Assembly (NCBI GenBank): GCA_031316235.1
Contig: JALDRA010000001.1
Coordinates: forward strand, 2,610,001 to 2,642,000
Direction of reading: 5' to 3'
From: Candidatus Scalindua sp.
Lineage (GTDB): Bacteria; Planctomycetota; Brocadiia; Brocadiales; Scalinduaceae
Length of the DNA: 32,000 nt
The translations under genes were made by a program, and so were the position numbers. Numbering within the stretch: the stretch's first letter is position 1; every line of letters starts with the position of its first letter. Of this stretch, positions 3,455-32,000 are shown piece after piece. The notes beneath the pieces were generated by a model. That model saw nothing but the letters and a program-made list of their open reading frames with translations, had not been told where the DNA came from and searched no databases.

Positions 3455-3578
3455 CATAGTGCCGTGCCTCAGACTCATTTTATAAGGTTCCTGTATTCCA
3501 TGGGACTACATGCAGGTAGGATTTGATATTTGGCTAATCGGTAATTCATTCTGGCTCAATCTGTTTAGGAGTAAATTG

Positions 3579-8143: not shown

Positions 8144-9610
8144 TTAACTTACCGAAACTTCTTTTTCTGAGGGCACAGTTACTGCACTGCTCTTATACCA
8201 ATCCTGGTAATAATCTCCTGAATCATAAAGCTTATGGAGATTATCTAAAACCTGCTCAAATACCTGCTGCCAATCAGACCCTACTCGAAAGCCAAACATG
8301 GCATTTCGTTTCCCGTGCATTGTGCTGCCAATGGTTTTTGCGGATTTCCTAAAACGGTGCCTCAGATTATCACCGGCATAAAGATTATCGTACATGTACT
8401 GCATGCCATCAATAAAGTCTTCCAGCGTCATATCAACGAATCTGTGTACAACATGTGCAGTGTCATAATATTTCCAGTCTTCAGGATAATTTTTGCGGAA
8501 AATCCTTTTTTCCGCGTCGAGTCTATGATAAAGGGCGGTTTGCGGGAATGGACAATTAATACCAAAAGTAAGGACATCAATATTGTTTTCGAGGACAAAT
8601 TCTGTCATCGTTTTGAATGAATCTTTATTGTCTCCATCTGCTCCCAAGACGATAGAGCCCCAGACTATGAGACCGTGATCATGAACCTTTTGAATGCAAT
8701 CGTAATAACTGTCAGTTCCCAGTCTGAGATTGACCTTTTTATTCATCTTCTCAAGAACTGCCTCGTTCGTCGATTCTATTCCGCAGAGAAATCCAAAATT
8801 ACCGCTCTTGGCCATTAGATCCAGAGCCTCTGCGTCCTGTGAAATATTAAGAGCGGTAAACCCAAGCCAATCCTTTTTTATGCCCCTGTCAATCATACCA
8901 CGCCAGAGGGCCTTTGCCCTGTTTGCGGAGTTCTTACTGTGGCCATAAAAATTGTCCTCGGCAAACATCAATCCCTTGTAATCAGTGGCTTCCATCTCAT
9001 CTAAGACATCTTCATATGGTCTTTCACGGTATTTTTTCCCCTGGAAGGTGGGTACGCTGCAAAAATCACAGTAATTCGGACATCCCTTGGTTGTCACAAT
9101 AGAAGAAAACTTATAATCATATTTTTTCTTCAAAAATTCCCTGTCGGGGAATACGTGTTTCATTTCTGATAAGGCCGGCAGCCCTCCATTGTAGATTTTT
9201 TTGAGTTCACCGTTTTCAAAATCTTTAATTACCTGCGGCCAGAGAGCTTCAGCCTCACCGGTAAATATGGCATCAACATATTGAGCCGATTCATTTGGCA
9301 TAACGGATACATGAATTCCTCCCATGATTACGGTCATACCTCGGTTTCTACAGGCTTCCGCAATTTTGTATGCCCTTGCCACCTGGTAGGTGACAGAGGT
9401 GATACATACCAGATCAACGGGCTCAAACGTTATTTTTCCGTTTTCATCGATTGCCAGCTCCATATTTTCATCGATTAAGTCAAATTCCCAATCTCCGGGA
9501 GTCAAAGCTGCGATATAAGCAAGGTTTAAAGGCATTTGTACGATAACAGAGATACTTTCTTCACCATGTCTTCCTGGTGGGTGTGGATTGATGAGCATCA
9601 TTTTTCTCAT
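8144..9610 (-). CDS. B12-binding-domain radical SAM enzyme (class B type)
   Basis: CX3CX2C motif in TTKGCPNYCDFCSVP. N-terminal Rossmann-like B12-binding region (MMLINPHPP...DLVCITSVTYQVARAYKIAEA...TVIMGGIHVS). AGGAGG lies 7 nt upstream of the ATG. Confidence 0.85.
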   Translation of the reverse strand: MRKMMLINPHPPGRHGEESISVIVQMPLNLAYIAALTPGDWEFDLIDENMELAIDENGKITFEPVDLVCITSVTYQVARAYKIAEACRNRGMTVIMGGIHVSVMPNESAQYVDAIFTGEAEALWPQVIKDFENGELKKIYNGGLPALSEMKHVFPDREFLKKKYDYKFSSIVTTKGCPNYCDFCSVPTFQGKKYRERPYEDVLDEMEATDYKGLMFAEDNFYGHSKNSANRAKALWRGMIDRGIKKDWLGFTALNISQDAEALDLMAKSGNFGFLCGIESTNEAVLEKMNKKVNLRLGTDSYYDCIQKVHDHGLIVWGSIVLGADGDNKDSFKTMTEFVLENNIDVLTFGINCPFPQTALYHRLDAEKRIFRKNYPEDWKYYDTAHVVHRFVDMTLEDFIDGMQYMYDNLYAGDNLRHRFRKSAKTIGSTMHGKRNAMFGFRVGSDWQQVFEQVLDNLHKLYDSGDYYQDWYKSSAVTVPSEKEVSVS

Positions 9611-9622
9611 TTTCTTGTCCTC

Positions 9623-11035
9623 CTAATTATTTAAAATCATATTAGCCACCCCCCAGCCTGAGGAGACAACGGCACAGATCCCTGGACCAGGATTTGTCCA
9701 GTGCCCTGCTAGAAAAAGATTCTTGAAAGGTGTAGTGTGCGGAAGCCTGTTCGACCAGGTTTGGTCAACGGTGACTGCCCAACCATATGCCGCACCCTTT
9801 GAATTAAGGGTGTAGCGTTTTAAAGTCCTGGGTGTACCGGTCTCAATTACATCAACGTGGTTCCGGATATCTGGAACAAGAGTTTCAAGAAAATTCATCG
9901 TGTGTTTTGTCATCTTTTCCTTAAAAGCATCAAAATTTCCTATTTCATCAAAATGCTCACTTAGGGACACCACAACGGTAATTATCTGCTTGCCGTCAGG
10001 TGCAAGGTTTGCATCCACTTTGGTTGGTACAGATATATAGAACCACTCACTCTCAGAACAACTCGTGCCTCCCGATGTATGATAGAAGCCTCTCTTTAAA
10101 TCTTTTAAATCAATTTTATTGCCAAGGCCCAGATATAACAGAAAGAACGATGTGCTTTCCTTCATGGTTCTTATTTTTTGAAGGTACGCCGCGTCAATCT
10201 CTTGATTATCGAGTAATGTAAAAAAAGTCTGTCCAGGATCTATATTTGAAACGAACTGATCAGCGTGGTATTTTTCCCCTCTGTCCGTTATAACTCCTTT
10301 TACAAGCATATCTTTCGTCAAGATCTTCTCGACCTTAGAAGATAACATAATACGGCCACCATAGTCAATAAATTTTTGAGTAATTGCGTCCGCAAAATTC
10401 TGGGTGCTCCCCAGTGGATAAAAAGCACCATCTTTGAGATAATTAACCAACATCTGGCACATACCAATAGCAGAAGCTTCATGAGGTGGAGAACCGATAT
10501 AACCCCATTGAGCGGACAGCACCATTTTAAGACGTTCATCAGTAAAAAAAATATCCAGCATTTCCTTATAAGTCAGGTCTTTGTACTTTGCCAATATTTG
10601 GCTCTCCTTTGTGCGAACCGTTGACCGGTATAATCCTACAAATTCCTTGAAGAACGCTGAAATATTGTTGCTTTCAGAGACAAAATTATTTTGGAGTACT
10701 TTTACGTAATCATCAAGATCCGCTGGTACATCTACCGAAAAGGTCGGGAAGTTTAAACTATCCATCGGATCCAGCTGTACAAACCTGATGTCTATTCCAA
10801 GTTCCTTGAGACATCTGCCAACGATGCTCCATGTTCCGCATCCGCCAATGTGGTGAACTGCGGCATCAAAAGTAAAACCTTTTCTTTTAAAAGAGGTGCA
10901 ATAGCCCCCCGGCAGGTAATGTTGTTCAATTAACAGTGTTTTTTTTCCGTTTTTTGCCAGGAATGCCCCGCAGATTAAACCTCCAATTCCTGCTCCGAGA
11001 ATGATTACATCGTATTTTGGCTCTTTCAGATTCAT
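9623..11035 (-). CDS. FAD-dependent phytoene-desaturase-family (CrtI/CrtN-like) oxidoreductase
   Basis: Dinucleotide fold YDVIILGAGIGGLICGAFLAKNGKKTLLIEQHYLPGG. C-terminal family motif NLFLAGHWTNPGPGICAVVSSG. The ATG at 11035 is preferred over the GTG at 11080 that opens the track ORF. Confidence 0.85.
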   Translation of the reverse strand: MNLKEPKYDVIILGAGIGGLICGAFLAKNGKKTLLIEQHYLPGGYCTSFKRKGFTFDAAVHHIGGCGTWSIVGRCLKELGIDIRFVQLDPMDSLNFPTFSVDVPADLDDYVKVLQNNFVSESNNISAFFKEFVGLYRSTVRTKESQILAKYKDLTYKEMLDIFFTDERLKMVLSAQWGYIGSPPHEASAIGMCQMLVNYLKDGAFYPLGSTQNFADAITQKFIDYGGRIMLSSKVEKILTKDMLVKGVITDRGEKYHADQFVSNIDPGQTFFTLLDNQEIDAAYLQKIRTMKESTSFFLLYLGLGNKIDLKDLKRGFYHTSGGTSCSESEWFYISVPTKVDANLAPDGKQIITVVVSLSEHFDEIGNFDAFKEKMTKHTMNFLETLVPDIRNHVDVIETGTPRTLKRYTLNSKGAAYGWAVTVDQTWSNRLPHTTPFKNLFLAGHWTNPGPGICAVVSSGWGVANMILNN

Positions 11036-11145
11036 GGGAATTGTACCAGTTGTGATTTTACTTATCGAACGAAATAACACTTATGAACTGCTGACAGATG
11101 AAACTCTAATAGCAGAGAGTGTATCTTAAATGGTGATTTTACTGA

Positions 11146-12384
11146 CTAATTTGAATATTTTGAGATGATGATAGATGAAATGTTGCCGGTATCAGAAAAA
11201 GCGTTGATAAGAACATTGTTTACCTCCGATGCTCTCTTTTTGTTCGGGACATAATCCAGGTCGCACGTGTCATCTTTTTCCTGATAATTTATCGTGGGCG
11301 GGATAACGCTAGTGTTGATTGCCATGATAGCTGCAACACACTGCATAGCGCCAGATGCATCGAGGCATTCACCAGTCATAGATTTTATGGCACTTATTGG
11401 AACTTTTGCTGCGATATTTCCAAAGTAATCCTTAATAACCCTGGTTTCCATCATGTCTCCGGTTTTACTTGAGTTTGCACATGCAGAAATATAGGAAATA
11501 TCGTCAATATTGAGCTCTGCTTCTCTCATTGCCAAAGAAATACACCTTACGCCTTCCTCGGTATTAAGTACTTCATGGTCTATTTTCTTCGGATTAAAGG
11601 TGTTTCCGTACCCCTTTATTTCAGCGTAAATTTTTGCATCTCTTTGTTGTGCGTCTTCCAGCCTTTCAATAACAAGCAGTGCTGCAGATTCCCCTATGAT
11701 AAATCCGTTCCTCCTCTTATCGAATGGTGCAGAGATTTCCACGGATTCTCCCCTGCTGCCAGAGAGTATGCCTGATCTGTACGCACCCCAGAAAATGTCC
11801 GGGGCTAACCCGTATACGCCGCCGGCTAATACTGCTTTTACTCGATTCAGCCGCAGGAAATCTGAAGCGTAAATTATTGCGTCCAGTCCGCTTGTGACGC
11901 CAGTTGATATTGTGGAGTTAAGACCTGTTGCCTTACAAAATATTGAAGCCCGGCTTGCAGGGGCATTTAATACAGTATTGGGGAATTCCATGGGATTTAC
12001 AAAACTCGGCCCCTCTTTGAGTGCTTCCAGATCAAATGAACTGATACTATCGATGCTGCCGTACGTTGAACCTATTACTATCCCTAAATCTTCTTCTCGA
12101 TAGATTTCATGGGTGATCTCGGCATCGTCCATGACCAATTTTGCAGCGGAAGAGGCCAGAAGAGAAGTTCTGTCAATATGCCTGATTCCTTTTTTGCCGA
12201 GAAATTCCCTTGCGTCAAATTCTGATATCTCACCTGCCTTTTTGCTTTTATACCGGGAAACATCAAAGAGGGTGATATCCTTTATACCGGAAACGCCGTT
12301 TGTTAAATTATTCCAGAAATCGTCTTTGTTCAGTCCCAGCGGAGATAAAATGCTGATTCCTGTTATTACCAAGCGTGTACTCAT
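11146..12384 (-). CDS. Ketosynthase-like protein lacking the catalytic triad (KS-beta / CLF-like partner)
   Basis: Full-length FabF/KAS II fold (VITGISILSPLG..., PPTINY...CDLDYVPN). Aligned against FabF motifs: TACxSG is TGVTSG (Cys to Val), AHGTST is ACANSS (His to Cys), KSMTGH is KSMTGE (His to Glu). Confidence 0.85.
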   Translation of the reverse strand: MSTRLVITGISILSPLGLNKDDFWNNLTNGVSGIKDITLFDVSRYKSKKAGEISEFDAREFLGKKGIRHIDRTSLLASSAAKLVMDDAEITHEIYREEDLGIVIGSTYGSIDSISSFDLEALKEGPSFVNPMEFPNTVLNAPASRASIFCKATGLNSTISTGVTSGLDAIIYASDFLRLNRVKAVLAGGVYGLAPDIFWGAYRSGILSGSRGESVEISAPFDKRRNGFIIGESAALLVIERLEDAQQRDAKIYAEIKGYGNTFNPKKIDHEVLNTEEGVRCISLAMREAELNIDDISYISACANSSKTGDMMETRVIKDYFGNIAAKVPISAIKSMTGECLDASGAMQCVAAIMAINTSVIPPTINYQEKDDTCDLDYVPNKKRASEVNNVLINAFSDTGNISSIIISKYSN

Positions 12385-12437
12385 AGTTATCGTTAATCCA
12401 TCAGAAAAATAATTTCTCTAAAACAAAAAAAATAGCT

Positions 12438-13658
12438 TTACCCTGAATACTTTTTTAACACGAGGCAACTATTGTTACCACCAAAGGCATATGCGTTATT
12501 TAACGCTATGGTAATTTCCATTTCGCGTTTAACATTTGGAACGAAATCCAGATCACATTCAGGGTCCATGGTTTCATAGTTTATCGTAGGCGGAACCACA
12601 TCTCCTTTGATAGCCAGGGCACATGCAATGGCCTCTATAGCACTTGCCGCTCCCATAGTATGACCTAACATCGATTTAATAGAACTTATCGCCAGCCGCT
12701 TTGCATGTTCTCCAAAAACCTTTTTAATCGATATTGTTTCAGCTTTGTCATTTGCCAAAGTTCCCGTTCCATGCGCACTTATGTATTGAACATCTTCAGG
12801 TTTTATATTTGCATCTTTTAATGCTTTTTCCATCGCTGAGACAACACCGTTCCCATCCGGGTGGGGGATGGTGATGTGATAACTGTCACAACTTAAACCG
12901 TAACCTAGAATTTCTGCGTAGATATTTGCGTTTCTGGCCAGTGCATCTTCCAGGGACTCCAGCACAAGCATTCCAGCACCTTCGCCAATCAGCATACCCT
13001 TCCTGTTTTTATCAAAAGGCTGGCAGATTTTCGGTGCAATAGCATTAAGCCTGCCAAATCCAACATACGCGACTTTTGAAAAAGGGTCAGAACCACCGGC
13101 TAACATTATGTCTGCTCTGCCTAATCTTATTAAGTCACAGGCATAACCTATAGCATAATTCCCTGCCGCACAGGCTGTCGGAATAATAGTAGTTGGCCCC
13201 TTGAAACCAAATTCGATAGATACGTTAGAAGGTATATTGATGCAGGGGTGGCTCAAGAAAAGATATGGATCTACGCTATCATCTCCGTTTTCATGCCGTA
13301 AAAGATTTACCCTTTCAAGGATCTGGATTTCCCCTGCGGTTGTGCCGATAGAGACACCTATGTTTTCAGGTGCAATGTCCTTTATCTGTAACCTGGAGTC
13401 ATCTAAAGCAAGCTTGGTAGCAGCGATCGCGAATTGTGACCCTTTGCCAATTTTGCGGTTTGAACCATTGCTAACATAATCTTCATACGTGAAGTCTTTG
13501 ACTTCACAGCCTCTGTGAACCTTGAAAAGGGAGGTATCGAAGGACTTCACTTCAGACACTCCGGATTTCCCAGCAATTAAAGCATTCCAAAATACGTCTT
13601 TGCCACATCCTATAGGGGAAATTGCTCCCACACCAGTTATTACAATTCTTTTGTTCAT
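12438..13658 (-). CDS. 3-oxoacyl-ACP synthase II-type ketosynthase (catalytically intact)
   Basis: FabF-like throughout. Active-site Cys in [13 protein letters not shown], His in YISAHGTGT, Lys/His in [16 protein letters not shown], then PPTINYE...CDLDFVPN. Confidence 0.9.
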
Positions 13659-20860: not shown

Positions 20861-23482
20861 TCACAATTCTTTCTCAATGCTTTTTACTCGATCTTTCGCC
20901 TGTTCGGTTCGTATATAAGTGAGATCACGTATGGAACCAAACAATTCGATTGACTTCTTTTCGTCTATAATGCACCAATACGCCTCTTTTGCCCTGTCAT
21001 AATAGATCTTTTGTTCCTCCTCAAACAACAAGGCCAGCTCTTCATAGAGATTGCCGATCCGATACTGTGCATTTACGGGTGTGATTCCCTTAAATTTTTC
21101 TATTATCTCCTGAAACCTATTGATTGCCCGATTATAATAAATCTTTGAACCGTCCCCGTCTCCCACATCATAAAGTGCCAGGCCAACATAATGGTAGGCT
21201 TCTGCTACCGCATAAGAATGCTCTTGAGCCTCATCTTTGTATCCCTCTCTGAGCTCTTCCAATATATTTTTATACCTCTGTTCCATCGCTTCCACAAGAC
21301 TTATGCTCAGGGGGATCTCGGAATCGTCTATTTCATTACGGCTCGCCACTTTTACCCGGGGGAAGAGAAGTTTGGTCAGGCAATTGCAATTCAGCCCCTT
21401 TACAAAATAGAGTTCTTCCAGAGAACCGAATTTTGCATTGTTTTTTCTATACTGTAAAATAATCTCTGTTTCTTCTTTATCTATTCGAAATCCATTATTG
21501 AGTAAAGTTGAGAGATCGTTATCATTTGCCCTGCAGAGTGCCTTGTATAATCTGAGGAGGGTAATCAGGATTGCCAGTTTCTGAGAAGGTGTTTCTCCAT
21601 GCAATACCGTTCTCCTGAAAAATATCAGCCAGGGATTTTTACAGGAAAATCTTACAGATTCCGGTCTGGTGTAAAAAACTTCAAGGGCGGTAGTAAGTTT
21701 GCGGCAATTCCAATCTTTAGACTCTTCATAGCCTGAATCCTGATATATTCTGTCAATTCGATGAAAGTATTCTGCTATTATGTGTCTCATCTCTATAGCG
21801 TTAACCTTTCGGTGCAGTTTCAATTCATGGGGCCTGTATTTTAAGGCCTCTCTGTAACAACAGAGCGCATCATTAAATTTTTTTGCATGACTGTTTTTGT
21901 CTCCCATGAATTCATAAAACCTTTTAAACATTTTCTTGTCTCTCAAGGCTTCCTTCTCCTCTTTATCCAGGCATTCCGACTTTGCAAAGTGCTCTATGAT
22001 TTCTCTTGGGGTCTGCAGTGATGCTTTTGTAAGGAACTCAAGTCCGGAAATATATTCGTAAACGGAATGACATTTTAAAGTTAAGTCGTTATCTGGCGGG
22101 AACTGTTTTCTTGCTTTTTGCACACAGCCCCGCGCCTCTTCAAACAGACCGAACTCAGCATATGCCTTTCCTAATTGGAGCAGTAAGCCTGCACCTGTTT
22201 TCTCGTTTGTCTGCTGCGCACGTTCATATTCGTTCCTATATTTACCAATCGTTGTCTTGTAGATAATGGGAATAATTTCAATAGTATTGCAGGCAATACG
22301 AATTACCTGTACTTTGACATCACCCGTTTCTGAATCAATCATAACCCCTGGGACTTCGCTCCCATCAGGGAATTGTATCCGGGGATTCTTTTTTATCACG
22401 CCGGCAGTAAAAACAGAGCTCTTTCCTTTTACCAGGTCTTTTGAGGTCAGGATCCTGTTCCAGGGCATTTCCTCCCTTTTTTCTGTGCAGGGCCGCACAA
22501 TTTTGAAATTTCTCAGGGTGTCTATTTCATTTTTTCTAAAAAGTTCCCAATTCTCTTGTTTTCTCAGCAACTCCTCATCCAGAGCAACTTCTGAGGGTAA
22601 TATCCTCAATGTTATTTCGCCTCCTAAATGTGCAACTATTATTCCACTCAACACAGCTTCAGGAACGCCTCCTACTCCCAGAATAAGGTCTATTTCGTTT
22701 CTCACTGCAGCGAAAGTCGGAGTGAGGTCATCGTCTTTAACAAGAATTGCAGTGGCACCCATGTTTGATATGGTTTCTGCAAGTTTTTTATGCCTCGATC
22801 TCTCCAGAGTCAGAATCCTCATCTTTTTGATTTCTGCCCGGATATTATCCGGGCTTTGTTCTTCGTTCCTGTTTTTCAGTGTATGCTGGGCCATTAATGT
22901 CAGATTCTGCGTAACAGGCAGGTCTGCACGTACACCTGCTCCCTTATATTTGTTTCCGACAATAGTCTTCATTCCGTACATATCTGGTGAATTGAACAAT
23001 CCGCCCCTGTTACTATATCCAACGGCAAAAATTGAACCTCCTTCAGAATCCGGATCAACGATGCACCGATCGTTCTCAAAGGCGCTGAGCGCAATATCAG
23101 CCTCCTCTCTCTTGTATCCTGTTGCAGAGCCGAATCTCTCTCCTATGTACAACATGGGCATATCCTTGCGTTCTCCCTCGGCATTTACCACATAAGCCTG
23201 CCACCAGTTAAAACTATTGTATATGTGTCTCAGCCACCAGACTGCCATACCCCGTGTACGAAATATGTTGAAATCTTCCCCATTGGTGCTGAAATATTTC
23301 AAGGAGCGAGCGGCAACAACCCCTACAGCATGTAGTAATTCATTTCTGTTTTCCAGTTGAAGAGTAGTGCCGGAAGTCTTCAGGTCATATTCTTTGGGAA
23401 TATACGCTTCTGTTATGTGGGGTTCGTACAGCATCTTGGGTTCAAACTTTTCGTCCTTTATAAATGAGAAATTGTTTTCCAT
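20861..23482 (-). CDS. Fusion protein: class II fructose-1,6-bisphosphatase (GlpX)-like domain + TPR-like helical repeats with embedded ComEA-like HhH module
   Basis: GlpX signatures from memory: AEGERKDMPMLYIGE, VDPDSEGG, SPDMYGMK, VKDDDL, GVGGVPEAV (aa ~45-410). TPR-like pairs include LGKAYAEFGLFEEARGCVQKA, FNDALCCYREALKYRP, AEAYHYVGLALYD...YYNRAINRFQ and YRIGNLYEE. HhH-like segment at aa ~652-708. Confidence 0.8.
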   Translation of the reverse strand: MENNFSFIKDEKFEPKMLYEPHITEAYIPKEYDLKTSGTTLQLENRNELLHAVGVVAARSLKYFSTNGEDFNIFRTRGMAVWWLRHIYNSFNWWQAYVVNAEGERKDMPMLYIGERFGSATGYKREEADIALSAFENDRCIVDPDSEGGSIFAVGYSNRGGLFNSPDMYGMKTIVGNKYKGAGVRADLPVTQNLTLMAQHTLKNRNEEQSPDNIRAEIKKMRILTLERSRHKKLAETISNMGATAILVKDDDLTPTFAAVRNEIDLILGVGGVPEAVLSGIIVAHLGGEITLRILPSEVALDEELLRKQENWELFRKNEIDTLRNFKIVRPCTEKREEMPWNRILTSKDLVKGKSSVFTAGVIKKNPRIQFPDGSEVPGVMIDSETGDVKVQVIRIACNTIEIIPIIYKTTIGKYRNEYERAQQTNEKTGAGLLLQLGKAYAEFGLFEEARGCVQKARKQFPPDNDLTLKCHSVYEYISGLEFLTKASLQTPREIIEHFAKSECLDKEEKEALRDKKMFKRFYEFMGDKNSHAKKFNDALCCYREALKYRPHELKLHRKVNAIEMRHIIAEYFHRIDRIYQDSGYEESKDWNCRKLTTALEVFYTRPESVRFSCKNPWLIFFRRTVLHGETPSQKLAILITLLRLYKALCRANDNDLSTLLNNGFRIDKEETEIILQYRKNNAKFGSLEELYFVKGLNCNCLTKLLFPRVKVASRNEIDDSEIPLSISLVEAMEQRYKNILEELREGYKDEAQEHSYAVAEAYHYVGLALYDVGDGDGSKIYYNRAINRFQEIIEKFKGITPVNAQYRIGNLYEELALLFEEEQKIYYDRAKEAYWCIIDEKKSIELFGSIRDLTYIRTEQAKDRVKSIEKEL

Positions 23483-24687: not shown

Positions 24688-26664
24688 GTGCGGAAATGGC
24701 TGGAAAAGGAAAAAGAGTTACGTAAAAAGGGATTTGCTGATAAGCAAATTGAAGAAACCGTTGCTTTTTTGCGGAAAAAAGGTGTTCAAACCGTTTGGGA
24801 TGTGCAGGATGCTTATGATTCGACTCTTTTTGGTTTGGGAGATAGATGTTCATTTGGAAGCCATGGTCTCTGTTGCCGGAACTGCAATCTCGGGCCATGC
24901 AGGCTCGGAAGTGAAGAGTTGCCCCTGCACCTGAAGTTTTCCGTACCAGGGGTGAATCGGAGCTCTTGTGGCAAGACAGCGGATAGCATGGTTGCCGGTA
25001 TGTTCCTCCAGACGGTATTGCGGGGGACAAGTTCACACATTGGCCATGCACTGCATGTAGCACGGGCATTCGTGAAGGCGGCGGAAGGTTCTGACCATTT
25101 TCCCATCAAGGATGCTCAAAAACTGCTGGCTGTTGCAAAAAGCCTGGGTATTAATACTGATCAAAAACAGGACCTTGCAATTGCAAAAGAGATAGGGCAG
25201 AAGGCAATGGAAGATCTTGCTGGACCGGGTGAAGGTCCAATGAGTTTCGCACTCGCCCTTGCACCGAAAAAAATAGAGAATCTTCTCGAAGCTGGACTGA
25301 TACCTCAGAAGGGAGCTGCGGAGGCAATCGTCCAGGGCGTGCATAGCACCGCACAGGGGATGATGAGCAGCGCCAAGCATCTGCTCCTCTCCTGTTTGAG
25401 GTTCGGTGTGATTGATATGATGGCCCTCTACATTTCCACACAACTGCAGGATATCCTGCTCGGAGTTCCAACTCCGAAACCGGGTAAAATCGGAATAGAT
25501 GTTTTAGAAAAAGACAAAGTGAATATCCTTGTTCATGGCCATGTGCCGGTACTATCAGAGATGGTGATTGCACAGGCAGACAAATTGACGGGAAAGGCAA
25601 TGGGAGCGGGTGCTAAAGGCATCAATGTGGTAGGCACCTGTTGTACGGGTACCGAGGTCTTAGTCAGGCTCGGGATCCCGATGGCCGGCAGCACGATCAT
25701 GCAGGAACTTATTGTCGGTACGGGTCTGGTTGATGCCGTGTGTGTAGATGTTCAGTGTGTCTATCCGTCACTCTCAACTATTACACAAGGGCTCCATACC
25801 CGTTTAATTACGACCATGCCGGAACTCAGAATGGACAACGATATCTATATAGAATTCACGCCGGACAATGCTCACGAGGCTGCAGGCCGAATCGTTGAAG
25901 AAGCAATTGCTGCATATAAAGAGCGTTCACCGGAGCGGACATTTTTGCCGAAGGCAAAAGGTCATGACCTGATGGGAGGATTTTCTGTAGAAGCTCTCAT
26001 GGGTGTGCTTGAAACCTTAAACCCGGAAAAACCACTCAAACCGCTGGTAGATTTAATTATTGATGGATCTATCCAGGGGGTAGCGGTTCTTGCCGGCTGC
26101 CTCTCTTCAAAGATTCAGACCGACATGAGTTTTGTTACCATAGCAAAGGAACTTCTCAGGAACAATATTCTGGTCCTTGCCACAGGGTGCGCAGCTACCG
26201 CATGTGCAAGGCACGGGCTGCTGATGGGTGAGGCAAAGAGTATCGTTGGTGAATCATTACGTGGTGTTCTGGATACGATCGGCAAGGCAGCAGGCCTGAA
26301 TGGTTCAATGCCGCCTATCCTCCATTTTGGTTCATGCGTTGACAACTCACGGTGTGCGGTACTGGCCTCCTCAATTGCAGATTATCTGGATACCTCCATA
26401 GATAAACTTCCGCTCATTGCAAGTGCTGCCGAACACGTTGTGGAAAAAGCGGCTGCCATTTACATGGGAGTGATCGCCCTCGGTATTACAACTCACATAG
26501 GGGTGACACCAAAACTGAGCGGATCACCGTACGTAATTAATATGCTTACCCGGGAGCTGGAGCATATTACCGGGAGTACTCTCCTCATCGAGATTGACCC
26601 AAACGATTCAGCAAAGGCGATGATCGAACATATTCGGAAAAAGAGAGCAGGGCTGGGTATTTAA
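24688..26664 (+). CDS. cooS: Anaerobic Ni-Fe carbon monoxide dehydrogenase catalytic subunit
   Basis: N-terminal Cys pattern CSFGSHGLCCRNCNLGPCRLG. Cluster-ligand contexts VHGHVP, VVGTCCTG, VDVQCVYP, LATGCAA, HFGSCVDNSR. 658 aa. GTG start with AAGGAG 6 nt upstream. Confidence 0.85.
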   Translation: MRKWLEKEKELRKKGFADKQIEETVAFLRKKGVQTVWDVQDAYDSTLFGLGDRCSFGSHGLCCRNCNLGPCRLGSEELPLHLKFSVPGVNRSSCGKTADSMVAGMFLQTVLRGTSSHIGHALHVARAFVKAAEGSDHFPIKDAQKLLAVAKSLGINTDQKQDLAIAKEIGQKAMEDLAGPGEGPMSFALALAPKKIENLLEAGLIPQKGAAEAIVQGVHSTAQGMMSSAKHLLLSCLRFGVIDMMALYISTQLQDILLGVPTPKPGKIGIDVLEKDKVNILVHGHVPVLSEMVIAQADKLTGKAMGAGAKGINVVGTCCTGTEVLVRLGIPMAGSTIMQELIVGTGLVDAVCVDVQCVYPSLSTITQGLHTRLITTMPELRMDNDIYIEFTPDNAHEAAGRIVEEAIAAYKERSPERTFLPKAKGHDLMGGFSVEALMGVLETLNPEKPLKPLVDLIIDGSIQGVAVLAGCLSSKIQTDMSFVTIAKELLRNNILVLATGCAATACARHGLLMGEAKSIVGESLRGVLDTIGKAAGLNGSMPPILHFGSCVDNSRCAVLASSIADYLDTSIDKLPLIASAAEHVVEKAAAIYMGVIALGITTHIGVTPKLSGSPYVINMLTRELEHITGSTLLIEIDPNDSAKAMIEHIRKKRAGLGI

Positions 26665-26688
26665 TTCAGGTATTATCCTCTCTATCTT

Positions 26689-26928
26689 TTACGCTATTGT
26701 GTATTGGCAATCCATGAAATCAAGCGGATTGGAAAGGGTAACATGGTCCGGGCTGTCGAGCTTCCCCCAGTTCAGTTTCTCACAGGAAAGGGTTTCAGGC
26801 AGCCACGCCATGGTTATATGTGCGTGCGGAGGTATCCTTCCTTTCTCAGGTAGAGGGGCGATCGTTGCGATTATGTCTCCCTCCCGGACAGTCTCTCCCC
26901 TCTCTCTGTACGGACTTGCCTCTCCTCT
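26689..26928 (-). pseudogene. Possible remnant of an M23-family metallopeptidase C-terminus
   Basis: A minus-strand open frame without a usable start reads ...GETVREGDIIATIAPLPEKGRIPPHAHITMAWLPE.... This resembles the V.(K/E)GD.IA..G....PH.H (HxH) end of M23 peptidases. The only in-frame ATG is late (26811), and the upstream HxxxD part is absent. Confidence 0.25.
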
Positions 26929-26979
26929 TTAAAAGAAATAAGGATGAACTGTCCAATCAGGTAAAACCTGTTTCTTGGC

Positions 26980-27762
26980 TCAGATCTTCCATTCGTTTTC
27001 CTGTCCTTCAAGGATTCCCATGTTGCTGCAGATTTCAGAAATTACTCCATCAGATGCAACTCTCTTTTCTGTTGAGCACCGCCCCCAGACATACACCCGG
27101 CCGTCATTCCATACAGGTTCACCTTCTTCACTCAGTTTGCCATGGAGAAATTTTGAAACATGGAGCCATTCTGAAATCTTTTGCTGTTCTCCTCTGCTGT
27201 TCTCAATGTCTCGTACATAATTTTCCAGTTCTTCAATCCTGTCATCTATATGGACCTGGTTTTTCTCGTTCGTCTCCTCGGAGATCTCTTCATCAGCCAG
27301 CATGAGTCTGCTGAAATTCTCCTCTCCCTTTAATTCTCCGATCTTTTGCCTGATCTCTTTCACGGCCTTTTCTCTTCCTCTATCCAGGACACTCTCTTTG
27401 CGAGACCTTATCTTCTCATGAATTTTCAGGTTGTGAAGGTCGGGGATATTAATATGGTATTTGTACAGGTTTTCTATCTCCTCTATTATCTCGCAGCTTT
27501 CGTCACTTTTAATTGACGCTATTAACGAACTGGTACGTTCCAGGATCTCTCTCTCCGCATATCTATCCTTCCGGCCGCTTTTAATGATTCCTTCCATGAG
27601 CGAAGAGACGAAACCAAGGACATCACGTTCTAAAGTGAGCTCTTTCTTTTCATCCGTAAAAAGCCTTTCCATTACTGAACTGATGCATCCCAAGACTTCA
27701 TTTTCCACAAATCTTTCCTGGATGGCCTGATTCTTGGCTGATTTATAAGCATTTGTACTCAT
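26980..27762 (-). CDS. Acidic coiled-coil hypothetical protein with three N-terminal ~25-aa repeats
   Basis: ATG at 27762 (GAAGGTG upstream). The track ORF opens at a GTG at 27768. Repeats: ENEVLGCISSVMERLFTDEKKE, ERDVLGFVSSLMEGIIKSGRKD, EREILERTSSLIASIKSDES. Then an E/K-rich helical middle and a globular C-terminal ~60 aa (ISEWLHVSKFLHGKLSEEGEPVWNDGRVYVWGRCSTEKRVASDGVISEI). Confidence 0.65.
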   Translation of the reverse strand: MSTNAYKSAKNQAIQERFVENEVLGCISSVMERLFTDEKKELTLERDVLGFVSSLMEGIIKSGRKDRYAEREILERTSSLIASIKSDESCEIIEEIENLYKYHINIPDLHNLKIHEKIRSRKESVLDRGREKAVKEIRQKIGELKGEENFSRLMLADEEISEETNEKNQVHIDDRIEELENYVRDIENSRGEQQKISEWLHVSKFLHGKLSEEGEPVWNDGRVYVWGRCSTEKRVASDGVISEICSNMGILEGQENEWKI

Positions 27763-28071
27763 ATACACCTTCTTTCCACTATATGATCATGGCGGCCTTG
27801 CCGGTCGTTATGGTGTTATACTAAAACCGTTATAAGATGAGTATATCCCCATTTTCTCTGTTTTCTGAGAGATGTCCACTCTTTTTCCGGTAAAGGGAAA
27901 AATCTGGATTGATACCTGTAACGGTTTTCCCTGGCCAGATCAAGCGGAAAATGTCAGACGGTGTTTAAAAGGAAATTCTGCCGTTGAACCGAAACAGCAA
28001 GTTATTCTTTCCTGGGCCCTAAGGTAAAGAGCTACTTTATCTAAACGGAACTTAATTTTACCGTTGTCACA

Positions 28072-28414
28072 ATACCCTGAGAGATGGGATGGATTACCTG
28101 CACCGCATTTGATCTCACCGGGGCTGCTTCCCCGATTAAAGGGCAGAAAGAAGGTCTTTTCCCCCTTTAATTGCGTTGTCATATACACCTCATTCACATC
28201 AGCGGCAAAATGGACCAGAGCCCTCCTTTTAAAGGAAAAGAGCGGAGCATTCGGACTGCGCGTAGCGCGGTACTGCCTCACCGCATCATGCCACGTCTGC
28301 CCGGTGCCCGGGTTCTTCAGCTCGCAGGTGGCCACCGGCAGGCAGAGCCTCTCTCATGAAAGCGATAATTTCAGAGGGAAACAGCGCCAGCCTGTTTTCA
28401 ATATCTTTATCAAG
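28072..28414 (-). pseudogene. hsdR: Decayed N-terminal fragment of a type I restriction enzyme R subunit (HsdR)
   Basis: LPVATCELKNPGTGQTWHDAVRQYRATRSPNAPLFSFKRRALVHFAADVNEVYMTTQLKGEKTFFLPFNRGS...GAGNP matches the HsdR N-terminal nuclease-domain pattern as I remember it. A stop lies immediately upstream. A shifted frame upstream reads DKDIENRLALFPSEIIAFMREA, like an HsdR extreme N-terminus. There is no helicase part downstream. Confidence 0.5.
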
Positions 28415-28431
28415 GCCTCGTGAAGTTATAA

Positions 28432-31400
28432 TTACAATTGCTTTCTTACACGTTCCGGTAATGCGGACAGGGCCATCAAGAGGTCATCATTTCCGGGTTT
28501 TGTTTTGACAAATGATGCAAAGAGGCAGGCGGCTTTCGCATGGATATCATGCACTGTTTTCCCAATGCCTGAACCTGTAATCCTGTTTGTTGTCAGTACC
28601 TTTTCCAGGTTGGATAACAGGGTGACGAGTGTCCAGTAATCGAGCGGTATTTTCATCATTAAATCATCGCATAAATATGTCAGCTGTCCCTGCATGGTAA
28701 AGAGTATCTCTTCGGTCAAGGCGGCACCACTGGTAATCATATTTGCAATTTCTTTTGAGAGTTCAGCAACGGCAACCCTCCCGATTGCCATAATGGAAGC
28801 TGCCGTCCTCATTTCAATCTTGAGTTCCTGAGAGATCTTCATGATGTCATCAAAGACCGTGCAGACGTTATCCTCAAGTAAACCGTTAATTTTTTTTAAG
28901 TCCCAACGCTCATTCCTGAGATTCTGGACCCATTCGAGATAGGAGACAAAGACACCACCCAGGTTGGTGCTTATGTCAGGTGTGACAAAGGTTCCTTTTC
29001 TGGTTACGATTTTATCTCCTTGCGGGGTGACCGGACCATTTGCACCTTCCACGATGATCCTGGCCTTTACGTTGTATGCATTCGTATCGATAGCGTTTTC
29101 AAGTGCAGCGAGAATGAGGAAGTCGACGTCCAGACCGAAAAGGCCCTCGTTTGTTATGTATCTCCCCCCGGGGAACCCCTTCAGGAATCCAGTGCCTTTT
29201 GAGCCGGCATAGGTGAATACAGCTTCTACATCCAGGCCGTTCGGATTATAGATACCACCGCTGGCATCGGTAAGAGCAACCACTTTTACCCCCGCATCAT
29301 GCAGAAATCTTGCGGGAGGACGTCCCACATTACCAAATCCCTGTATGGCAGCAGTGGAGCCCTTCAGCTTTATGTTCTTATATTTTGCCGCTTTCTGTAA
29401 GGCAATAAATACTCCCCGCCCTGTTGATTCAGCCCTTCCAAGAGATCCGCCCTGGGTATCCGGTTTGCCGGTAACAACCGCTAACGCCTTGCATTGCAGT
29501 CCCGGATGGTTTTTTACTATTTTCAGGCAGGTATCAAGGTAGGGAGTTTCCAGAGAGGTCGCGGGCACAGAGCCTAACGAACGGAATTCATCAACAATTT
29601 TCTCCAAGGAGCTAGTGCCGTTCAGCTGCCAGTCAGACATGTCTTCATTTTCGATGGATGTCTTGATGTATTCATCAACAAACCAGGCCATCTTGGTGGC
29701 ATTGGTGTTGACGTCAGGGGCAGGGATATCCAGGTGAGGTCCGCATGCATTTCTGTTCTTCAATTCACGGCTGTATTCCCTGATTATTACTGCATCTTTT
29801 TTATCCAGGATATTTCCTGGATTTATGATAATGCCTCCTTTTGAACCCCCATAAGGGATTCCAGCGACAGCACACTTCCATGTCATCCAGATGGCAAGGG
29901 CCCTCACCTCATCAAGTGTTACTTCGGGGTGTTCTCTGAAACCTCCCTTGGCAGGACCGCGTGCAGTGTTATGGTGTACGCGATACGCATTTACTTCGCC
30001 ATCCAGAAGGCGTAATGTCTCTATCCTCTCGGGTGTGAGCAATTTCCGTTTGAGAAATATCGGAAGCTTGAGGATATCTGCAACGACGGCGAATTGACTT
30101 TCTGCAACTTCAAGGGGGCTTGGCATGGCAACAGCATGCTCCCGCATTTTTGCATAGTCTAGAAGGGTAAGATTCGGGACTGAAAACAGTTGACTCACCC
30201 TCTCAAACTCACCGATCTCTTCTTTGTAACTGACAATATTCGTTGCAATGTCATCCTTGAGGTTGAGGAATCCCTCTAACTCCTCAACATTAGCGGCATT
30301 CAGGTTGATCCTCTCCAGTAAGGGTTCTTTCGGTTTTTCCTGTATACCTCCAGGAAGGTCGTCGAGATGATCCAGAGCTGTCAAATCCTCACCGGCAAGG
30401 AGCTTTAAACCTGTTTCTCCCATGGTGGAAAGATATGTCCTTCCGGGAGGTACTTTTGTGCCAAGCCTTTTTTGAGCCGCAGTAACGCTGTGAAGTCCCA
30501 GGATGATCTTGGATTCCACTTCATAGGAAAAAACAAGATCCAGGATCTGATTCGTACCGTTAGAGAACAGCTCATCTTCGTATTTTCCCGCAATCCCGTT
30601 GAATACGATGGTTTTAGAGTCCCGCATCTTTTTCTTGATAAGGGCGATCGTCTCGTTGCCGATGTCATAGGCCTTCATCTTCGAAAAACGTCCCTTGATT
30701 TCTTTTACCTTAACGTTTATCGGATCAAGGCCCGTAAGCTTTGCCATCATGTGGTCAACCGGAAGCGTTATATCAACTGAGTATCCCCTTGCCAGTTCAA
30801 GTACCACTATTGCATTACGAAGCGCCTGTGTCTGCAGATCAGGGTCTTTTTCAAGCATGCAGTTGTCTACATTATAACCCTGTACCTTGAGGAAGGGAAA
30901 TGCGATGCCGCCAATGATGATGAGTCGGTCAATTTTTCCATGGACGATAAGGTTTCTCATTGCCTCAACCTTGGCTGAGACGTTGGCACCTCCAATAATG
31001 GCTGTTACCGGTTTATGAGGGTTTCTCATAAAATTTTCCAGTGCCGTTAATTCCTGTGTGAGGAGAAATCCTGCCACTTTTGGGCCCGGGATGAGCCTGG
31101 TTATCTGGCCGAGTGACGCATGCTGGCCCATGTGGGCAGAAACCGGATCTGCATTAACATAGAAATCACAATGGGTGGTATCATGGAGTTGTCCTGCAAA
31201 CGCCATAACCTCATTATCATCTTCGGATGTCTCGCCGCTCCAGAACATCACATTCTCTAACAGAAAGATACCCTTTTTATCTATCAGGGATTTTGTTTTT
31301 TCCCCGATGCAGTGGTCTGCCATGAGGACTTCACAGCCATCCGGCAGAAGGCGTTTCTCTCTCAAAATCTCTGTGAGCCGTCTGGCAACAGGTCTCAGAC

Positions 31401-31704
31401 TGAAACCCGAATGGATCTCCCCATCCGATGCTATACCCACCGAGGTCTTTTTTTCCTTAAAGAAATTCTCCCGTTTTCCGTTGTGGGAGACAATAATAAC
31501 CGTGTCTGCACCACTTTTAAGGATATGACGGATGTCCATGACAGTCGCCCTGATGCGTCTATCGTCAACAATCTTTCCGTCCCTTACAATATCATAGTTG
31601 ACTCTGAGAAAAACCCTCTTTCCCTGTAAGGCAGATTTGTGAAGAGTACGTATGGGGGTTTTGTGGGCGTAGGGATACCATTCTAATGTTTCATTACTAT
31701 CCAT
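28432..31704 (-). CDS. Tri-partite fusion: divergent phosphoglycerate kinase-like domain - ComEA-like HhH module - Glu/Leu/Phe/Val-family (glutamate) dehydrogenase + ~110-aa C-terminal tail
   Basis: PGK fold: GKRVFLRVNYDIV.DGKI.DD.RIRA, VSHNGKR, FLLENVMF, YVNADPVSAHM, AIIGGANVSAK, IIIGGIAFPF, YDIGNET, IVFNGIAGKYE, YLSTMGETGL. HhH: INLNAANVEELEGF...IATNIVSYKEEIGEFERVSQLFSVPNL. GDH: YRVHHNTARGPAKGGFR, PYGGSKGGI, IPAPDVNT, TGKP..QGGS.GR.ESTGRGV, AIQGFGNVG, EGANGPVTP, PDISTNLGGVFVSYLEWVQN. ATG at 31704 (AAGGAG 9 nt upstream) is preferred over the ATG at 31779. Confidence 0.85.
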   Translation of the reverse strand: MDSNETLEWYPYAHKTPIRTLHKSALQGKRVFLRVNYDIVRDGKIVDDRRIRATVMDIRHILKSGADTVIIVSHNGKRENFFKEKKTSVGIASDGEIHSGFSLRPVARRLTEILREKRLLPDGCEVLMADHCIGEKTKSLIDKKGIFLLENVMFWSGETSEDDNEVMAFAGQLHDTTHCDFYVNADPVSAHMGQHASLGQITRLIPGPKVAGFLLTQELTALENFMRNPHKPVTAIIGGANVSAKVEAMRNLIVHGKIDRLIIIGGIAFPFLKVQGYNVDNCMLEKDPDLQTQALRNAIVVLELARGYSVDITLPVDHMMAKLTGLDPINVKVKEIKGRFSKMKAYDIGNETIALIKKKMRDSKTIVFNGIAGKYEDELFSNGTNQILDLVFSYEVESKIILGLHSVTAAQKRLGTKVPPGRTYLSTMGETGLKLLAGEDLTALDHLDDLPGGIQEKPKEPLLERINLNAANVEELEGFLNLKDDIATNIVSYKEEIGEFERVSQLFSVPNLTLLDYAKMREHAVAMPSPLEVAESQFAVVADILKLPIFLKRKLLTPERIETLRLLDGEVNAYRVHHNTARGPAKGGFREHPEVTLDEVRALAIWMTWKCAVAGIPYGGSKGGIIINPGNILDKKDAVIIREYSRELKNRNACGPHLDIPAPDVNTNATKMAWFVDEYIKTSIENEDMSDWQLNGTSSLEKIVDEFRSLGSVPATSLETPYLDTCLKIVKNHPGLQCKALAVVTGKPDTQGGSLGRAESTGRGVFIALQKAAKYKNIKLKGSTAAIQGFGNVGRPPARFLHDAGVKVVALTDASGGIYNPNGLDVEAVFTYAGSKGTGFLKGFPGGRYITNEGLFGLDVDFLILAALENAIDTNAYNVKARIIVEGANGPVTPQGDKIVTRKGTFVTPDISTNLGGVFVSYLEWVQNLRNERWDLKKINGLLEDNVCTVFDDIMKISQELKIEMRTAASIMAIGRVAVAELSKEIANMITSGAALTEEILFTMQGQLTYLCDDLMMKIPLDYWTLVTLLSNLEKVLTTNRITGSGIGKTVHDIHAKAACLFASFVKTKPGNDDLLMALSALPERVRKQL

Positions 31705-32000
31705 TGTCTCTTTCTCCTTCTGTTTTTTCAGCTGCAAAACATTGCGTTCAGCAGGTTCGAAACCAAACTGACATGTCATATGGACCAGTGAAACGTATCC
31801 GTTGCGTTGCGTGTACTGTTTCCGCCCATGATACCTTTATAAACCGAATTATCAATGCCTATTTTTCCTGGAATCACAGGCATGGAAATGTTCTGTATGG
31901 GGCCTTATACGAAGGAGAGAATTTTGACCCCTGTCGCTGCTGTTGCGGTTGGAATGGAAATGGAGACCGGCTGGTAAAATTGCTCTTGACTTAATCATCT

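Follow-up and report, generated by a model that had tools for sequence, protein, structure and literature searches.

Organization of the fusion gene

The 32,000-nucleotide stretch of Candidatus Scalindua DNA that was analyzed (the window) possesses a single uninterrupted open reading frame (ORF) on the reverse strand at positions 28432..31779 that encodes 1115 residues with zero internal stop codons, as had been described from the sequence originally. The frame is open in the 5' direction as far as an ATG at 31779. The start codon probably is the ATG at 31704 (ORF residue 26), as the motif AAGGAG is located 9 nt upstream and the resulting length of 1090 residues agrees with that of the database protein and its homologs. 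The encoded protein is 100% identical to P0001 (MDR4505334.1, 1090 aa). It comprises a phosphoglycerate kinase (PGK)-like module, a helix-hairpin-helix (HhH) module and a glutamate dehydrogenase (GDH), and GC and GC3 contents are even from module to module. The features are as follows, with ORF residue numbers.

31828..31855, reverse strand: sigma-70-like promoter candidate TTGATA-16-TATCAT, 10/12 matches (consensus match only)
31714..31719, reverse strand: Shine-Dalgarno sequence AAGGAG, 9 nt 5' of the ATG at 31704 (direct sequence reading)
28432..31704, reverse strand: coding sequence of the 1090-aa PGK-like/HhH/GDH protein, including the stop codon (ORF, start-site reading and database match)
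31636..31704, reverse strand: family-specific N-terminal extension, residues 26-48, with a near-invariant EWYPYA motif
30388..31635, reverse strand: PGK-derived two-lobe module, residues 49-464 (Pfam, alignments, dN/dS 0.07-0.10)
30316..30387, reverse strand: linker rich in Pro, Lys and Glu, residues 465-488, poorly conserved
30139..30315, reverse strand: ComEA-type HhH, residues 489-547, both G-phi-G hairpins degenerate (Pfam; dN/dS 0.07-0.17)
29665..30126, reverse strand: GDH domain I, residues 552-705, aligning to Thermotoga maritima GDH 6-160, with the catalytic lysines and PAPD intact
29488..29664, reverse strand: GDH insertion, residues 706-764, with the motif TPYLD (alignment; dN/dS 0.20-0.39)
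28759..29487, reverse strand: remainder of GDH with the NAD(P)-binding domain, residues 765-1007, aligning to T. maritima GDH 167-409
28435..28758, reverse strand: family-specific, all-helical C-terminal tail, residues 1008-1115, with an invariant PLDYW motif (tail model pLDDT 88.6)

The fusion is genuine and confined to two anammox lineages

Pfam assigned PGK, HHH_3, ELFV_dehydrog_N and ELFV_dehydrog domains to the protein, and this four-domain architecture is common to ~39 database proteins. When 1.84 billion protein representatives were searched, the PGK-GDH architecture formed one 50%-identity cluster confined to Candidatus Scalinduaceae and Ca. Subterrananammoxibius, which are anammox Brocadiales, and other PGK-GDH architectures were not found among these representatives. 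Literature searches by organism and enzyme names and by accession numbers also revealed no paper on this protein among the papers covered. The database label of the protein is "phosphoglycerate kinase" in >20 anammox genomes.

A small number of database entries are fragmented or lack internal segments: P0192 is frameshifted in the HhH module, and P0198 and P0201 are in-frame chimeras. These might suggest that two separate genes had been merged through a frameshift or an assembly join. However, 19 independent assemblies, with contigs of 2.3-4.1 Mb among them, harbor the same intact ORF of 1090-1121 residues, and both selection and GC3 are consistent over the domain junctions. The probability of an artifact is negligible and this reading is refuted for practical purposes: the fusion is genuine, conserved and a single gene.

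Comparison of neighborhoods revealed no conserved gene neighbor that points to a pathway. The sole neighbors in common were the divergent Hsp20-DnaJ genes, which recurred in just the three closest genomes and beyond which synteny was clade-local and involved unrelated genes; the fusion gene therefore comes with no operon clue. A second pgk or gdh gene was not found in the window and ~260 kb of Scalindua loci, which is far too small a genome fraction for this result to be meaningful.

The GDH half retains its catalytic motifs

The GDH half aligns to residues 6-409 of the 415 in T. maritima GDH (2TMG), a hexameric enzyme of the ~50-kDa ELFV class, with ~44% identity. Matches to ELFV_dehydrog_N (PF02812; residues 596-704, 138.2 bits) and ELFV_dehydrog (PF00208; residues 777-1006, 219.2 bits) both were above gathering scores. 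The KGGFR, GGSKGG, PAPDV, GFGNVG, EGANGP and GGVFVSYLEWVQN motifs noted originally all are present, and KGG, MTWK, GGxKGG, PAPD and GGVxVS together with the GxGxxG dinucleotide fold are identical or conservatively substituted compared to 2TMG. The two proteins thus share catalytic and glutamate-specificity motifs in addition to GFGNVG. The alignment indicates that the catalytic set is intact, and the GDH is predicted to be competent and of the hexamer type. The NCBIfam equivalog GdhA_Arch (NF040817) matched with 387.9 bits, under its cutoff of 750, and the match was split in two by the insertion. There was no real match to Bac_GDH (PF05088; E = 0.094, 11.7 bits versus a cutoff of 22.8). A hexameric fusion protein would form a complex of ~730 kDa.

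In contrast to 2TMG, the window protein possesses a ~55-residue insertion that separates domain I from the TGKP strand, a helical tail of 108 residues and an N-terminal extension of 550 residues. The insertion had been estimated at ~45 residues; instead, it amounts to a net ~53-59 residues, with 65 residues separating MAWFVDEY from TGKP compared to ~10 in T. maritima GDH. A few GDHs outside the family also carry it. Pfam searches with the tail alone and with the insertion alone returned nothing significant. The tail-only model was confident (pLDDT 88.6), and no significant neighbor was detected for it by Foldseek against the PDB (best E 0.88), so that the tail fold yields no functional clue. 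The full-length AlphaFold2 model, which was built from a 28-sequence family alignment, had a mean pLDDT of 49 and a pTM of 0.33, values too poor for interdomain contacts, and domain packing therefore was not drawn from it.

The PGK-like module has lost residues required for phosphotransfer

The PGK family (PF00162) profile matched residues 49-464 over positions 4-379 of 379 (E = 1.7e-74; 251.5 bits versus a cutoff of 27). Homology to canonical PGKs (EC 2.7.2.3; T. maritima 1VPE, human PGK1) is full-length, covering both lobes and the C-terminal strap with 32-36% identity. Unlike these enzymes, the window module is fused to other modules, has an additional insertion of ~15 residues after SHNG and differs at numerous active site positions. 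The altered motif strings reported originally all were located: SHNGKR (98-103), ENVMF (175-179), ADPVSAHM (210-217), GGANVSAK (263-270), FNGIAGKYE (393-401), LGLHS (427-431) and STMGET (451-456).

Residues were compared in an alignment with 108 canonical PGKs. Within the 3-phosphoglycerate basic patch (Arg38, His62, Arg65, Arg122 and Arg170), the window protein keeps only Arg38 and His62: Arg65 is replaced by Lys, at a position that is variable in the family, and both Arg122 and Arg170 by Met. Asp23 and Asn25 also are changed at this site, to Asn and Asp, respectively. The catalytic and closure motif GGAKVSDK reads GGANVSAK, from which the Asp218 to Ala change is read directly, and Lys215 is replaced by Asn in 88% of the family. 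In the phosphate/Mg loop, GGGD(T/S) at 371-375 became LGLHS, with Leu in place of Gly371 and Gly373 and an invariant His in place of Asp374. The STGGGA turn is STMGET, with Gly394 and Gly396 replaced by Met and Glu, respectively. The roles of Lys215 and of the 371-375 loop are those established for human PGK1. Arg65, Arg122 and Arg170 bind the 3-phosphate, and salt bridges of Arg65 and Arg170 with Asp218 stabilize the active closed form (reviewed in PMC7729029). By established PGK enzymology, the aligned module lacks residues that are essential to phosphotransfer and domain closure, and most likely has no kinase activity.

The original prediction that the 3-phosphoglycerate-binding arginines and nucleotide-binding residues are lost holds for Lys215, Asp218, Arg122, Arg170 and the GGGD loop, but was overstated. 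In addition to Arg38 and His62, the nucleotide contacts Lys219, Asn336 and Glu343 are kept in 100, 94 and 85% of the family, respectively, and the adenosine-pocket glycines Gly213, Gly237 and Gly340 all are conserved in 100%; moreover, the basic patch is whole in two relatives, P0033 and P0034. Substitutions were not statistically concentrated at ligand sites: 12/24 invariant ligand-site columns were kept compared to 51/74 elsewhere (Fisher p = 0.14, not significant), and this proposal was rejected.

The residues and pocket glycines that are retained, along with conservation of the new residues His430 and Asn266, might indicate that the module still is catalytic, either as an altered PGK or in phosphorylation of another carboxylate, and that the protein is bifunctional. 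A stand-alone relative described below, which looks catalytically competent and adjoins a GAPDH-like gene, favors the same view. However, Lys215, Asp218 and Asp374 all disappeared together, two glycines are gone from the N-terminus of the phosphate-binding helix and two from the STGGGA turn, phosphate-binding places now are occupied by bulky Leu and Met, and in Scalindua Met has replaced both Arg122 and Arg170. Residual or novel catalysis by the module is improbable on this evidence, and we infer that the module is enzymatically dead.

Stepwise loss of PGK sites

P0090, the nearest stand-alone relative of the module, shares with it 42% identity, the derived features SHNG, AFPF, NGxAGxY and IILG, and the insertions. 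In contrast to the window protein, most catalytic residues are kept in P0090, including Lys215, Asp374, Arg122, Arg170 and STGGGA. In the Subterrananammoxibius proteins P0033 and P0034 the C-lobe phosphate site is gone while the basic patch is still complete, and in Scalindua both are lost. These sequences indicate that the PGK sites were lost in steps along the lineage. Insertion-bearing GDHs are represented by P0043, P0053 and P0056, and the TPYLD insertion is common to P0043, P0056 and the window protein. Unlike the latter, P0090 and the insertion-bearing GDHs either are unfused or are fused to other domains (GNAT and HD; a 300-residue C-terminal extension); the N-termini of P0090 and P0043 are hydrophobic and signal-like, a feature that is absent from the window protein.

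The possibility that the P0090 and P0043 contigs are adjacent was rejected: they do not overlap, and a terminator-like hairpin follows P0090. A metagenome scan seeded with P0090 recovered ordinary PGKs only (31-44% identity) and did not enlarge the divergent clade.

Selection on the modules

The PGK-like module is under purifying selection (dN/dS 0.07-0.10) almost as strong as that on the GDH core (0.05-0.08). Values for the HhH module were 0.07-0.17, and those for the insertion and tail 0.2-0.39. The selection on the PGK-like module implies that it functions, although probably not as a kinase.

One such function would be as a pure scaffold, in which the PGK-like domain has no small-molecule ligand and instead builds or positions a large complex, for example through docking or localization. 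The ex-ligand positions are conserved within the family to no higher extent (22/33) than other positions (225/360), the basic patch differs between lineages, and interface-like features are present at both ends of the protein, in the form of the family-specific EWYPYA motif at the N-terminus and the helical tail bearing the invariant PLDYW. However, constraint is strong in both lobes (~38-43% invariant columns; omega ~0.08) and exceeds what a spacer usually needs, the remodeled cleft residues (His at 374, Leu at 371 and 373 and Asn at 215) are near-invariant, and a conserved partner gene was not found among the neighborhoods. A purely architectural role thus is rather doubtful.

The HhH module and nucleic acid binding

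The ComEA-type HhH placed originally at residues ~488-548 is supported by a match of HHH_3 (PF12836) to residues 489-547 (E = 1.3e-9; 38.5 bits versus a gathering score of 27), although TIGR00426 and comE matches were under their cutoffs and both G-phi-G hairpins, the elements with which such modules contact the DNA backbone, are degenerate. These read NLK and NLT in the window protein compared to GVG and GIG in Bacillus subtilis ComEA; across the family, the consensus reads IKxG and GVT. Binding of DNA by this module might place the enzyme on the nucleoid or confer a moonlighting DNA function, for which the HHH_3 score and weak matches to the HhH domains of ComEA and TEFM speak. As neither hairpin has its glycines, the suggestion of nucleic acid association is weakened; in most homologs a single glycine is left (GVT), and DNA-related neighbors were not found in the neighborhood comparison. 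The module also is acidic (net charge -6, pI 4.4), but the ComEA reference fragment itself has a net charge of -2 and this argument was dropped as weak. Tethering of the GDH to nucleic acid is very unlikely overall.

A GDH with a probable pseudoenzyme accessory

The explanation that we favor, to which we assign a probability of ~0.5, is that the protein is a competent GDH of the hexamer type bearing at its N-terminus a PGK-derived two-lobe domain that no longer would transfer phosphate and that has been kept as a non-catalytic accessory. Most likely the module would sense a ligand or conformational state and modulate the GDH. The degenerate HhH would act as a structured link, and the helical tail would add a further family-specific interface. 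We infer that the module regulates the GDH rather than merely acting as a scaffold. More specifically, but tentatively, the PGK module may be a hinge-closing, Venus-flytrap-like metabolite sensor whose ancestral ligand was 3-phosphoglycerate, which was retuned in Scalindua to another ligand or an adenine nucleotide, and which allosterically gates the hexameric GDH. As the basic patch is unlike in Scalindua and Subterrananammoxibius, no one ligand stands out as conserved. Also counting against the favored explanation are the lack of concentration of substitutions at ligand sites, the ex-ligand positions that are no better conserved than others, and the absence of a conserved gene neighbor.

Large bacterial NAD-GDHs (~115 and 180 kDa; PF05088) and mammalian GDH, which carries an antenna, also attach large non-catalytic regulatory modules to a GDH core. 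The window protein shares this concept, but the catalytic family (PF05088 is unmatched) and the regulatory folds differ, and we know of no PGK-like part in those enzymes. In the PGK-TIM fusion of Thermotoga (fus gene), PGK likewise makes up the N-terminal part of a larger metabolic protein. However, both halves of that protein are active glycolytic enzymes, whereas the PGK part of the window protein is degenerate and there is no TIM domain: the PGK-TIM profile NF010569 scored 238.7 bits versus a cutoff of 883, with the match limited to profile positions 4-392 in the PGK half. Kinetoplastids possess PGK domains that are catalytically dead and joined to sensor and HTH modules: their PGKL proteins combine PGK-like, cyclic-nucleotide-binding, HTH-like and transmembrane domains, and other dead PGK-like proteins are covered by the same review (PMC7729029). 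PGKL resembles the window protein in carrying a substrate-site-substituted PGK fold beside a relict DNA-binding-type module in a multidomain protein, but is eukaryotic and flagellar, has other partner domains and no GDH, and arose independently. This precedent was counted in favor of an accessory role.

Small hexameric bacterial GDHs generally are considered unregulated, and a conserved N-terminal module of 550 residues would be a new way of regulating or building such an enzyme. In automated pathway reconstructions, a PGK domain that probably is inactive may be taken for pgk, and the GDH may be overlooked or wrongly placed. The family outlines a stepwise and biochemically testable route from enzyme to pseudoenzyme, from a competent-looking stand-alone protein, through loss of the C-lobe site, to loss of both sites. 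If the module is a sensor, it would exemplify in bacteria the reuse of a glycolytic enzyme as a regulatory pseudoenzyme. Marine anammox bacteria then would have a previously unknown means of linking both ammonium assimilation and production of glutamate as an osmolyte to their carbon and energy status.

A single gene encodes the fusion protein

The reverse-strand interval 28432..31779 is a single open frame of 1115 codons with one stop at its end, as the original prediction of an uninterrupted ORF had it, and all of the motif strings quoted in that prediction are present in the protein at the positions assigned to them. The ATG at 31779 probably is not the start. An AAGGAG sequence precedes the ATG at 31704 with a 9-nt spacing, and initiation there gives a product of 1090 aa with 100% identity to the deposited protein P0001 (MDR4505334.1), recorded as 'phosphoglycerate kinase [Candidatus Scalindua sp.]'.

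Fusion gene and Pfam domains of its product (residues of the 1115-codon ORF)
28432..31704 (-), fusion gene
31855..31828 (-), promoter-like TTGATA-16-TATCAT, consensus match only
Residues 49-464, PGK, E 1.7e-74
Residues 489-547, HHH_3, E 1.3e-9
Residues 596-704, ELFV_dehydrog_N, E 1.7e-40
Residues 777-1006, ELFV_dehydrog, E 8.8e-65

A frameshift or assembly join had been raised as a possible source of the fusion. The same intact ORF of 1090-1121 aa is found in 19 independent assemblies, and GC and GC3 are even from module to module within the gene, which leaves a negligible probability that the fusion is an artefact and not one real gene. Thus, the fusion is one gene. G+C is 0.46-0.50 at 25001-32000 vs 0.38-0.44 across most of the window. 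Among database variants of the fusion, P0192 carries a frameshift within the helix-hairpin-helix (HhH), and P0198 and P0201 are in-frame chimeras with large internal deletions, one joined at a shared DGIF microhomology; these exceptions in the family probably are metagenome assembly or sequencing artefacts.

The architecture is restricted to one lineage

When 5.8 billion proteins were searched through a word index, the four Pfam domains recurred in ~39 full-length or partial proteins that are 67-100% identical; every one of these comes from Candidatus Scalindua, Scalinduaceae or Brocadiia. This search is sensitive to relatives far under 67% identity, and it produced no orthologue in Kuenenia, Brocadia or Jettenia. 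Across 185,579 species genomes, the phosphoglycerate kinase (PGK)-like part was located in 22 loci. These belong to Scalindua spp., to Scalinduaceae and to Ca. Subterrananammoxibius californiae, which represents a separate family within Brocadiales; two short contigs with this part under other taxa probably are mis-binned or mislabelled. The 1090-aa query was also searched exhaustively by phmmer against 1.84 billion representatives, with each 50%-identity cluster represented once. P0008 (1865 bits) was the sole full-length match, and therefore the fusion constitutes a single lineage-restricted family. The second-best match was a plain glutamate dehydrogenase (GDH; 364 bits), and no other long GDH-containing representative among the best 150 matches had a PGK domain. 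No paper on the fusion protein was found in the literature searched. The architecture is real, conserved, lineage-restricted and uncharacterised.

The PGK-like module has lost catalytic residues

The PGK-like module was compared in an alignment with 108 canonical PGKs; human PGK1 was included for numbering only. Arg38, His62 and Lys219 are kept, as are Asn336 and Glu343 in 94% and 85% of the family, respectively, and the glycines Gly213, Gly237, Gly340 and Gly372. Lys215, which with the N-terminus of the 371-375 helix functions in phosphotransfer and Mg-phosphate binding in PGK, is replaced by Asn, and Gly371-Gly-Gly-Asp-Thr by Leu-Gly-Leu-His-Ser in which the His is invariant. The remaining changes are Asp23 to Asn, Asn25 to Asp, Arg65 to Lys or Val (variable), Arg122 and Arg170 to Met, Asp218 to Ala, Gly394 to Met and Gly396 to Glu. 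In PGK, Arg65, Arg122 and Arg170 bind the 3-phosphate; His62, Asp23 and Asn25 bind substrate; and salt bridges between Arg65/Arg170 and Asp218 stabilise the catalytically active closed form (PMC7729029). The predicted loss of ligand-binding signatures consequently holds for Lys215, Asp218, Arg122, Arg170 and the GGGD loop, but not for Arg38, His62, Lys219, Asn336 and Glu343. Residual or new catalysis by the module is quite unlikely.

Of 85 near-invariant canonical columns, 53 are kept. Ligand-site columns are kept in 12/24 cases vs 51/74 elsewhere (p = 0.14), so that losses show no statistical enrichment at ligand sites, and conservation within the family is no higher at ex-ligand positions (22/33) than at others (225/360). 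The case for inactivity accordingly rests on the identity of the lost residues and not on an enrichment statistic. The protein passed PGK homology tests but failed PGK catalytic-site tests, and therefore phosphoglycerate kinase is the wrong class for it. In contrast, it passed the ELFV GDH Pfam and active-site tests, in agreement with the claim of an intact GDH, and therefore can be classified as a GDH that carries accessory domains. Its identification as a PGK-TIM fusion was rejected.

Selection was assessed per region of the gene as dN/dS by the Nei-Gojobori method.

dN/dS by region
PGK-like module, 0.07-0.10
HhH, 0.07-0.17
GDH core, 0.05-0.08
GDH insertion, 0.20-0.39
Tail, 0.20-0.30

Mean family identity is 0.77-0.79 in the PGK lobes and 0.82-0.87 in the GDH domains, and the replacement residues His430, Leu427, Leu429 and Asn61 are essentially invariant. 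Judged from its dN/dS and sequence conservation, the PGK-like module is functional despite the lost PGK sites. That it acts as a pure scaffold is a less probable reading.

HhH, GDH insertion and tail

The HhH scores above the Pfam cutoff, whereas ComEA TIGRFAM matches fall under theirs. The ComEA-type assignment thus stands, but the suggested association with nucleic acid fares poorly: the GVG and GIG hairpins of Bacillus subtilis ComEA (8DFK) align with NLK and NLT in the fusion protein, and most homologues have IKxG and GVT, and therefore canonical backbone-phosphate contacts are unlikely. Tethering of the protein to DNA through these hairpins is very improbable, and we read the HhH as a putative structured connector.

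The GDH half aligned with residues 6-160 and 167-409 of the 415 in Thermotoga maritima GDH (2TMG). As this alignment breaks between residues 160 and 167, the limits of the GDH insertion are placed at ~706-764, a net length of ~53-59 aa; an insertion was correctly predicted, but not its length of 45 aa. The same alignment places the start of the tail at ~1008. The tail alone was modelled confidently by AlphaFold2 as six helices (pLDDT 88.6, pTM 0.83) and contains an invariant PLDYW motif. The model has no significant PDB neighbour (best E 0.88), and no relative of the tail was found outside the family.

Origin and stepwise decay

Even the nearest canonical PGKs share no more than 32-36% identity with the PGK-like module, and they lack taxonomic affinity. 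Closer to the module, at 42% identity, is P0090, a stand-alone protein of 481 aa identified by exhaustive searching. P0090 has in common with the module the derived features SHNG, insertions, AFPF, NGxAGxY and IILG, and it retains Asp23, Asn25, Arg122, Arg170, Lys215, Asp374 and STGGGA. In P0033 and P0034, from the Subterrananammoxibius lineage, the basic patch of Arg38, His62, Arg65, Arg122 and Arg170 is complete, LGLH already is present and Lys215 is gone. In Scalindua proper both the 3-phosphoglycerate (3-PG) patch and the C-lobe phosphate site are gone. From these graded residue sets, the module arose from a divergent PGK paralogue, followed by fusion with loss of the C-lobe phosphate site and then by loss of the 3-PG patch.

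In L004 (genes at 90-2000 and 2059-3504), P0090 lies directly 3' of the gene for a 636-aa protein with remote similarity to archaeal-type GAPDH (2CZC, E 2.3e-6) and a retained SCNTT motif. Both N-termini are hydrophobic and signal-like, and the two may form a GAPDH-like/PGK-like pair that is exported or anchored in the membrane. Separately, P0168 (797 aa) is a tandem of two complete canonical PGK domains.

The nearest plain GDHs are 44% identical and lack the insertion, which was found outside the family in P0056 (E 2.5e-8), P0043 (E 6.6e-6) and, marginally, P0053, each with a TPYLD motif. P0056 (1583 aa) has added GNAT and HD domains, P0053 (800 aa) is extended at its C-terminus by 300 aa that include a P-loop-like GPETSGKQ, and P0043 (L005, 105-1589) has a signal-like N-terminus. 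Domain accretion seems frequent in insertion-bearing GDHs.

Genomic context

The fusion gene looks monocistronic. Divergent Hsp20, DnaJ and helicase genes lie upstream, an arrangement conserved in the three closest genomes only, and the downstream genes vary between related loci.

Other features of the window
2102-3454 (+), 450-aa protein with FHA and trypsin-like peptidase domains
8144-13658 (-), four genes: B12-binding radical SAM enzyme, flavin amine-oxidase/phytoene-desaturase-like protein, two beta-ketoacyl synthases
20861-23482 (-), 873-aa protein with divergent class II FBPase (GlpX)-like domain and C-terminal TPR repeats
24688-26664 (+), hybrid-cluster (prismane) protein, E 5e-129
26980-27768 (-), 262-aa ORF without a family
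27940-28335 (-), feature missing, like the 262-aa ORF, from all related loci

The four-gene run presumably resembles clusters proposed for anammox ladderane lipid biosynthesis. The GlpX-like domain (residues 79-364) matches the profile only over positions 33-271 of 307, shares ~20-25% identity with solved GlpX and has some altered metal/substrate motifs (DIALDPLEGT to DIALSAFEND). This GlpX-TPR protein, 5 kb from the PGK-GDH gene, is a second unusual fusion with a gluconeogenic-enzyme-like domain.

Proposed function and consequences

The fusion protein would be an active GDH in which the N-terminal PGK-derived module no longer catalyses and serves as an accessory. Its most probable role is regulation in response to a ligand or state by means of the two-lobe hinge architecture; we infer this function with a probability of roughly 0.5. 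Kinetoplastid PGKL, which combines a dead PGK with sensor and HTH-like modules, would work similarly but is of unrelated origin, and GDHs with large regulatory appendages are a conceptual likeness.

Such a fusion is surprising for GDH and pseudoenzyme specialists and, while its function still is inferred, the consequence for annotation is immediate. NCBI and UniRef name the family 'phosphoglycerate kinase' or occasionally 'glutamate dehydrogenase' (MDR4505334.1, GAX61509.1/WP_096894904.1, KHE92432.1, TWU34760.1, MBS1258951.1). Scalindua genomes are stated to have complete gluconeogenesis (PMC12213060, PMC9723696), but these statements are no evidence for a separate canonical pgk because the fusion protein itself is annotated as PGK. 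KEGG-style pathway completeness for Scalindua therefore may count the fusion protein as pgk.
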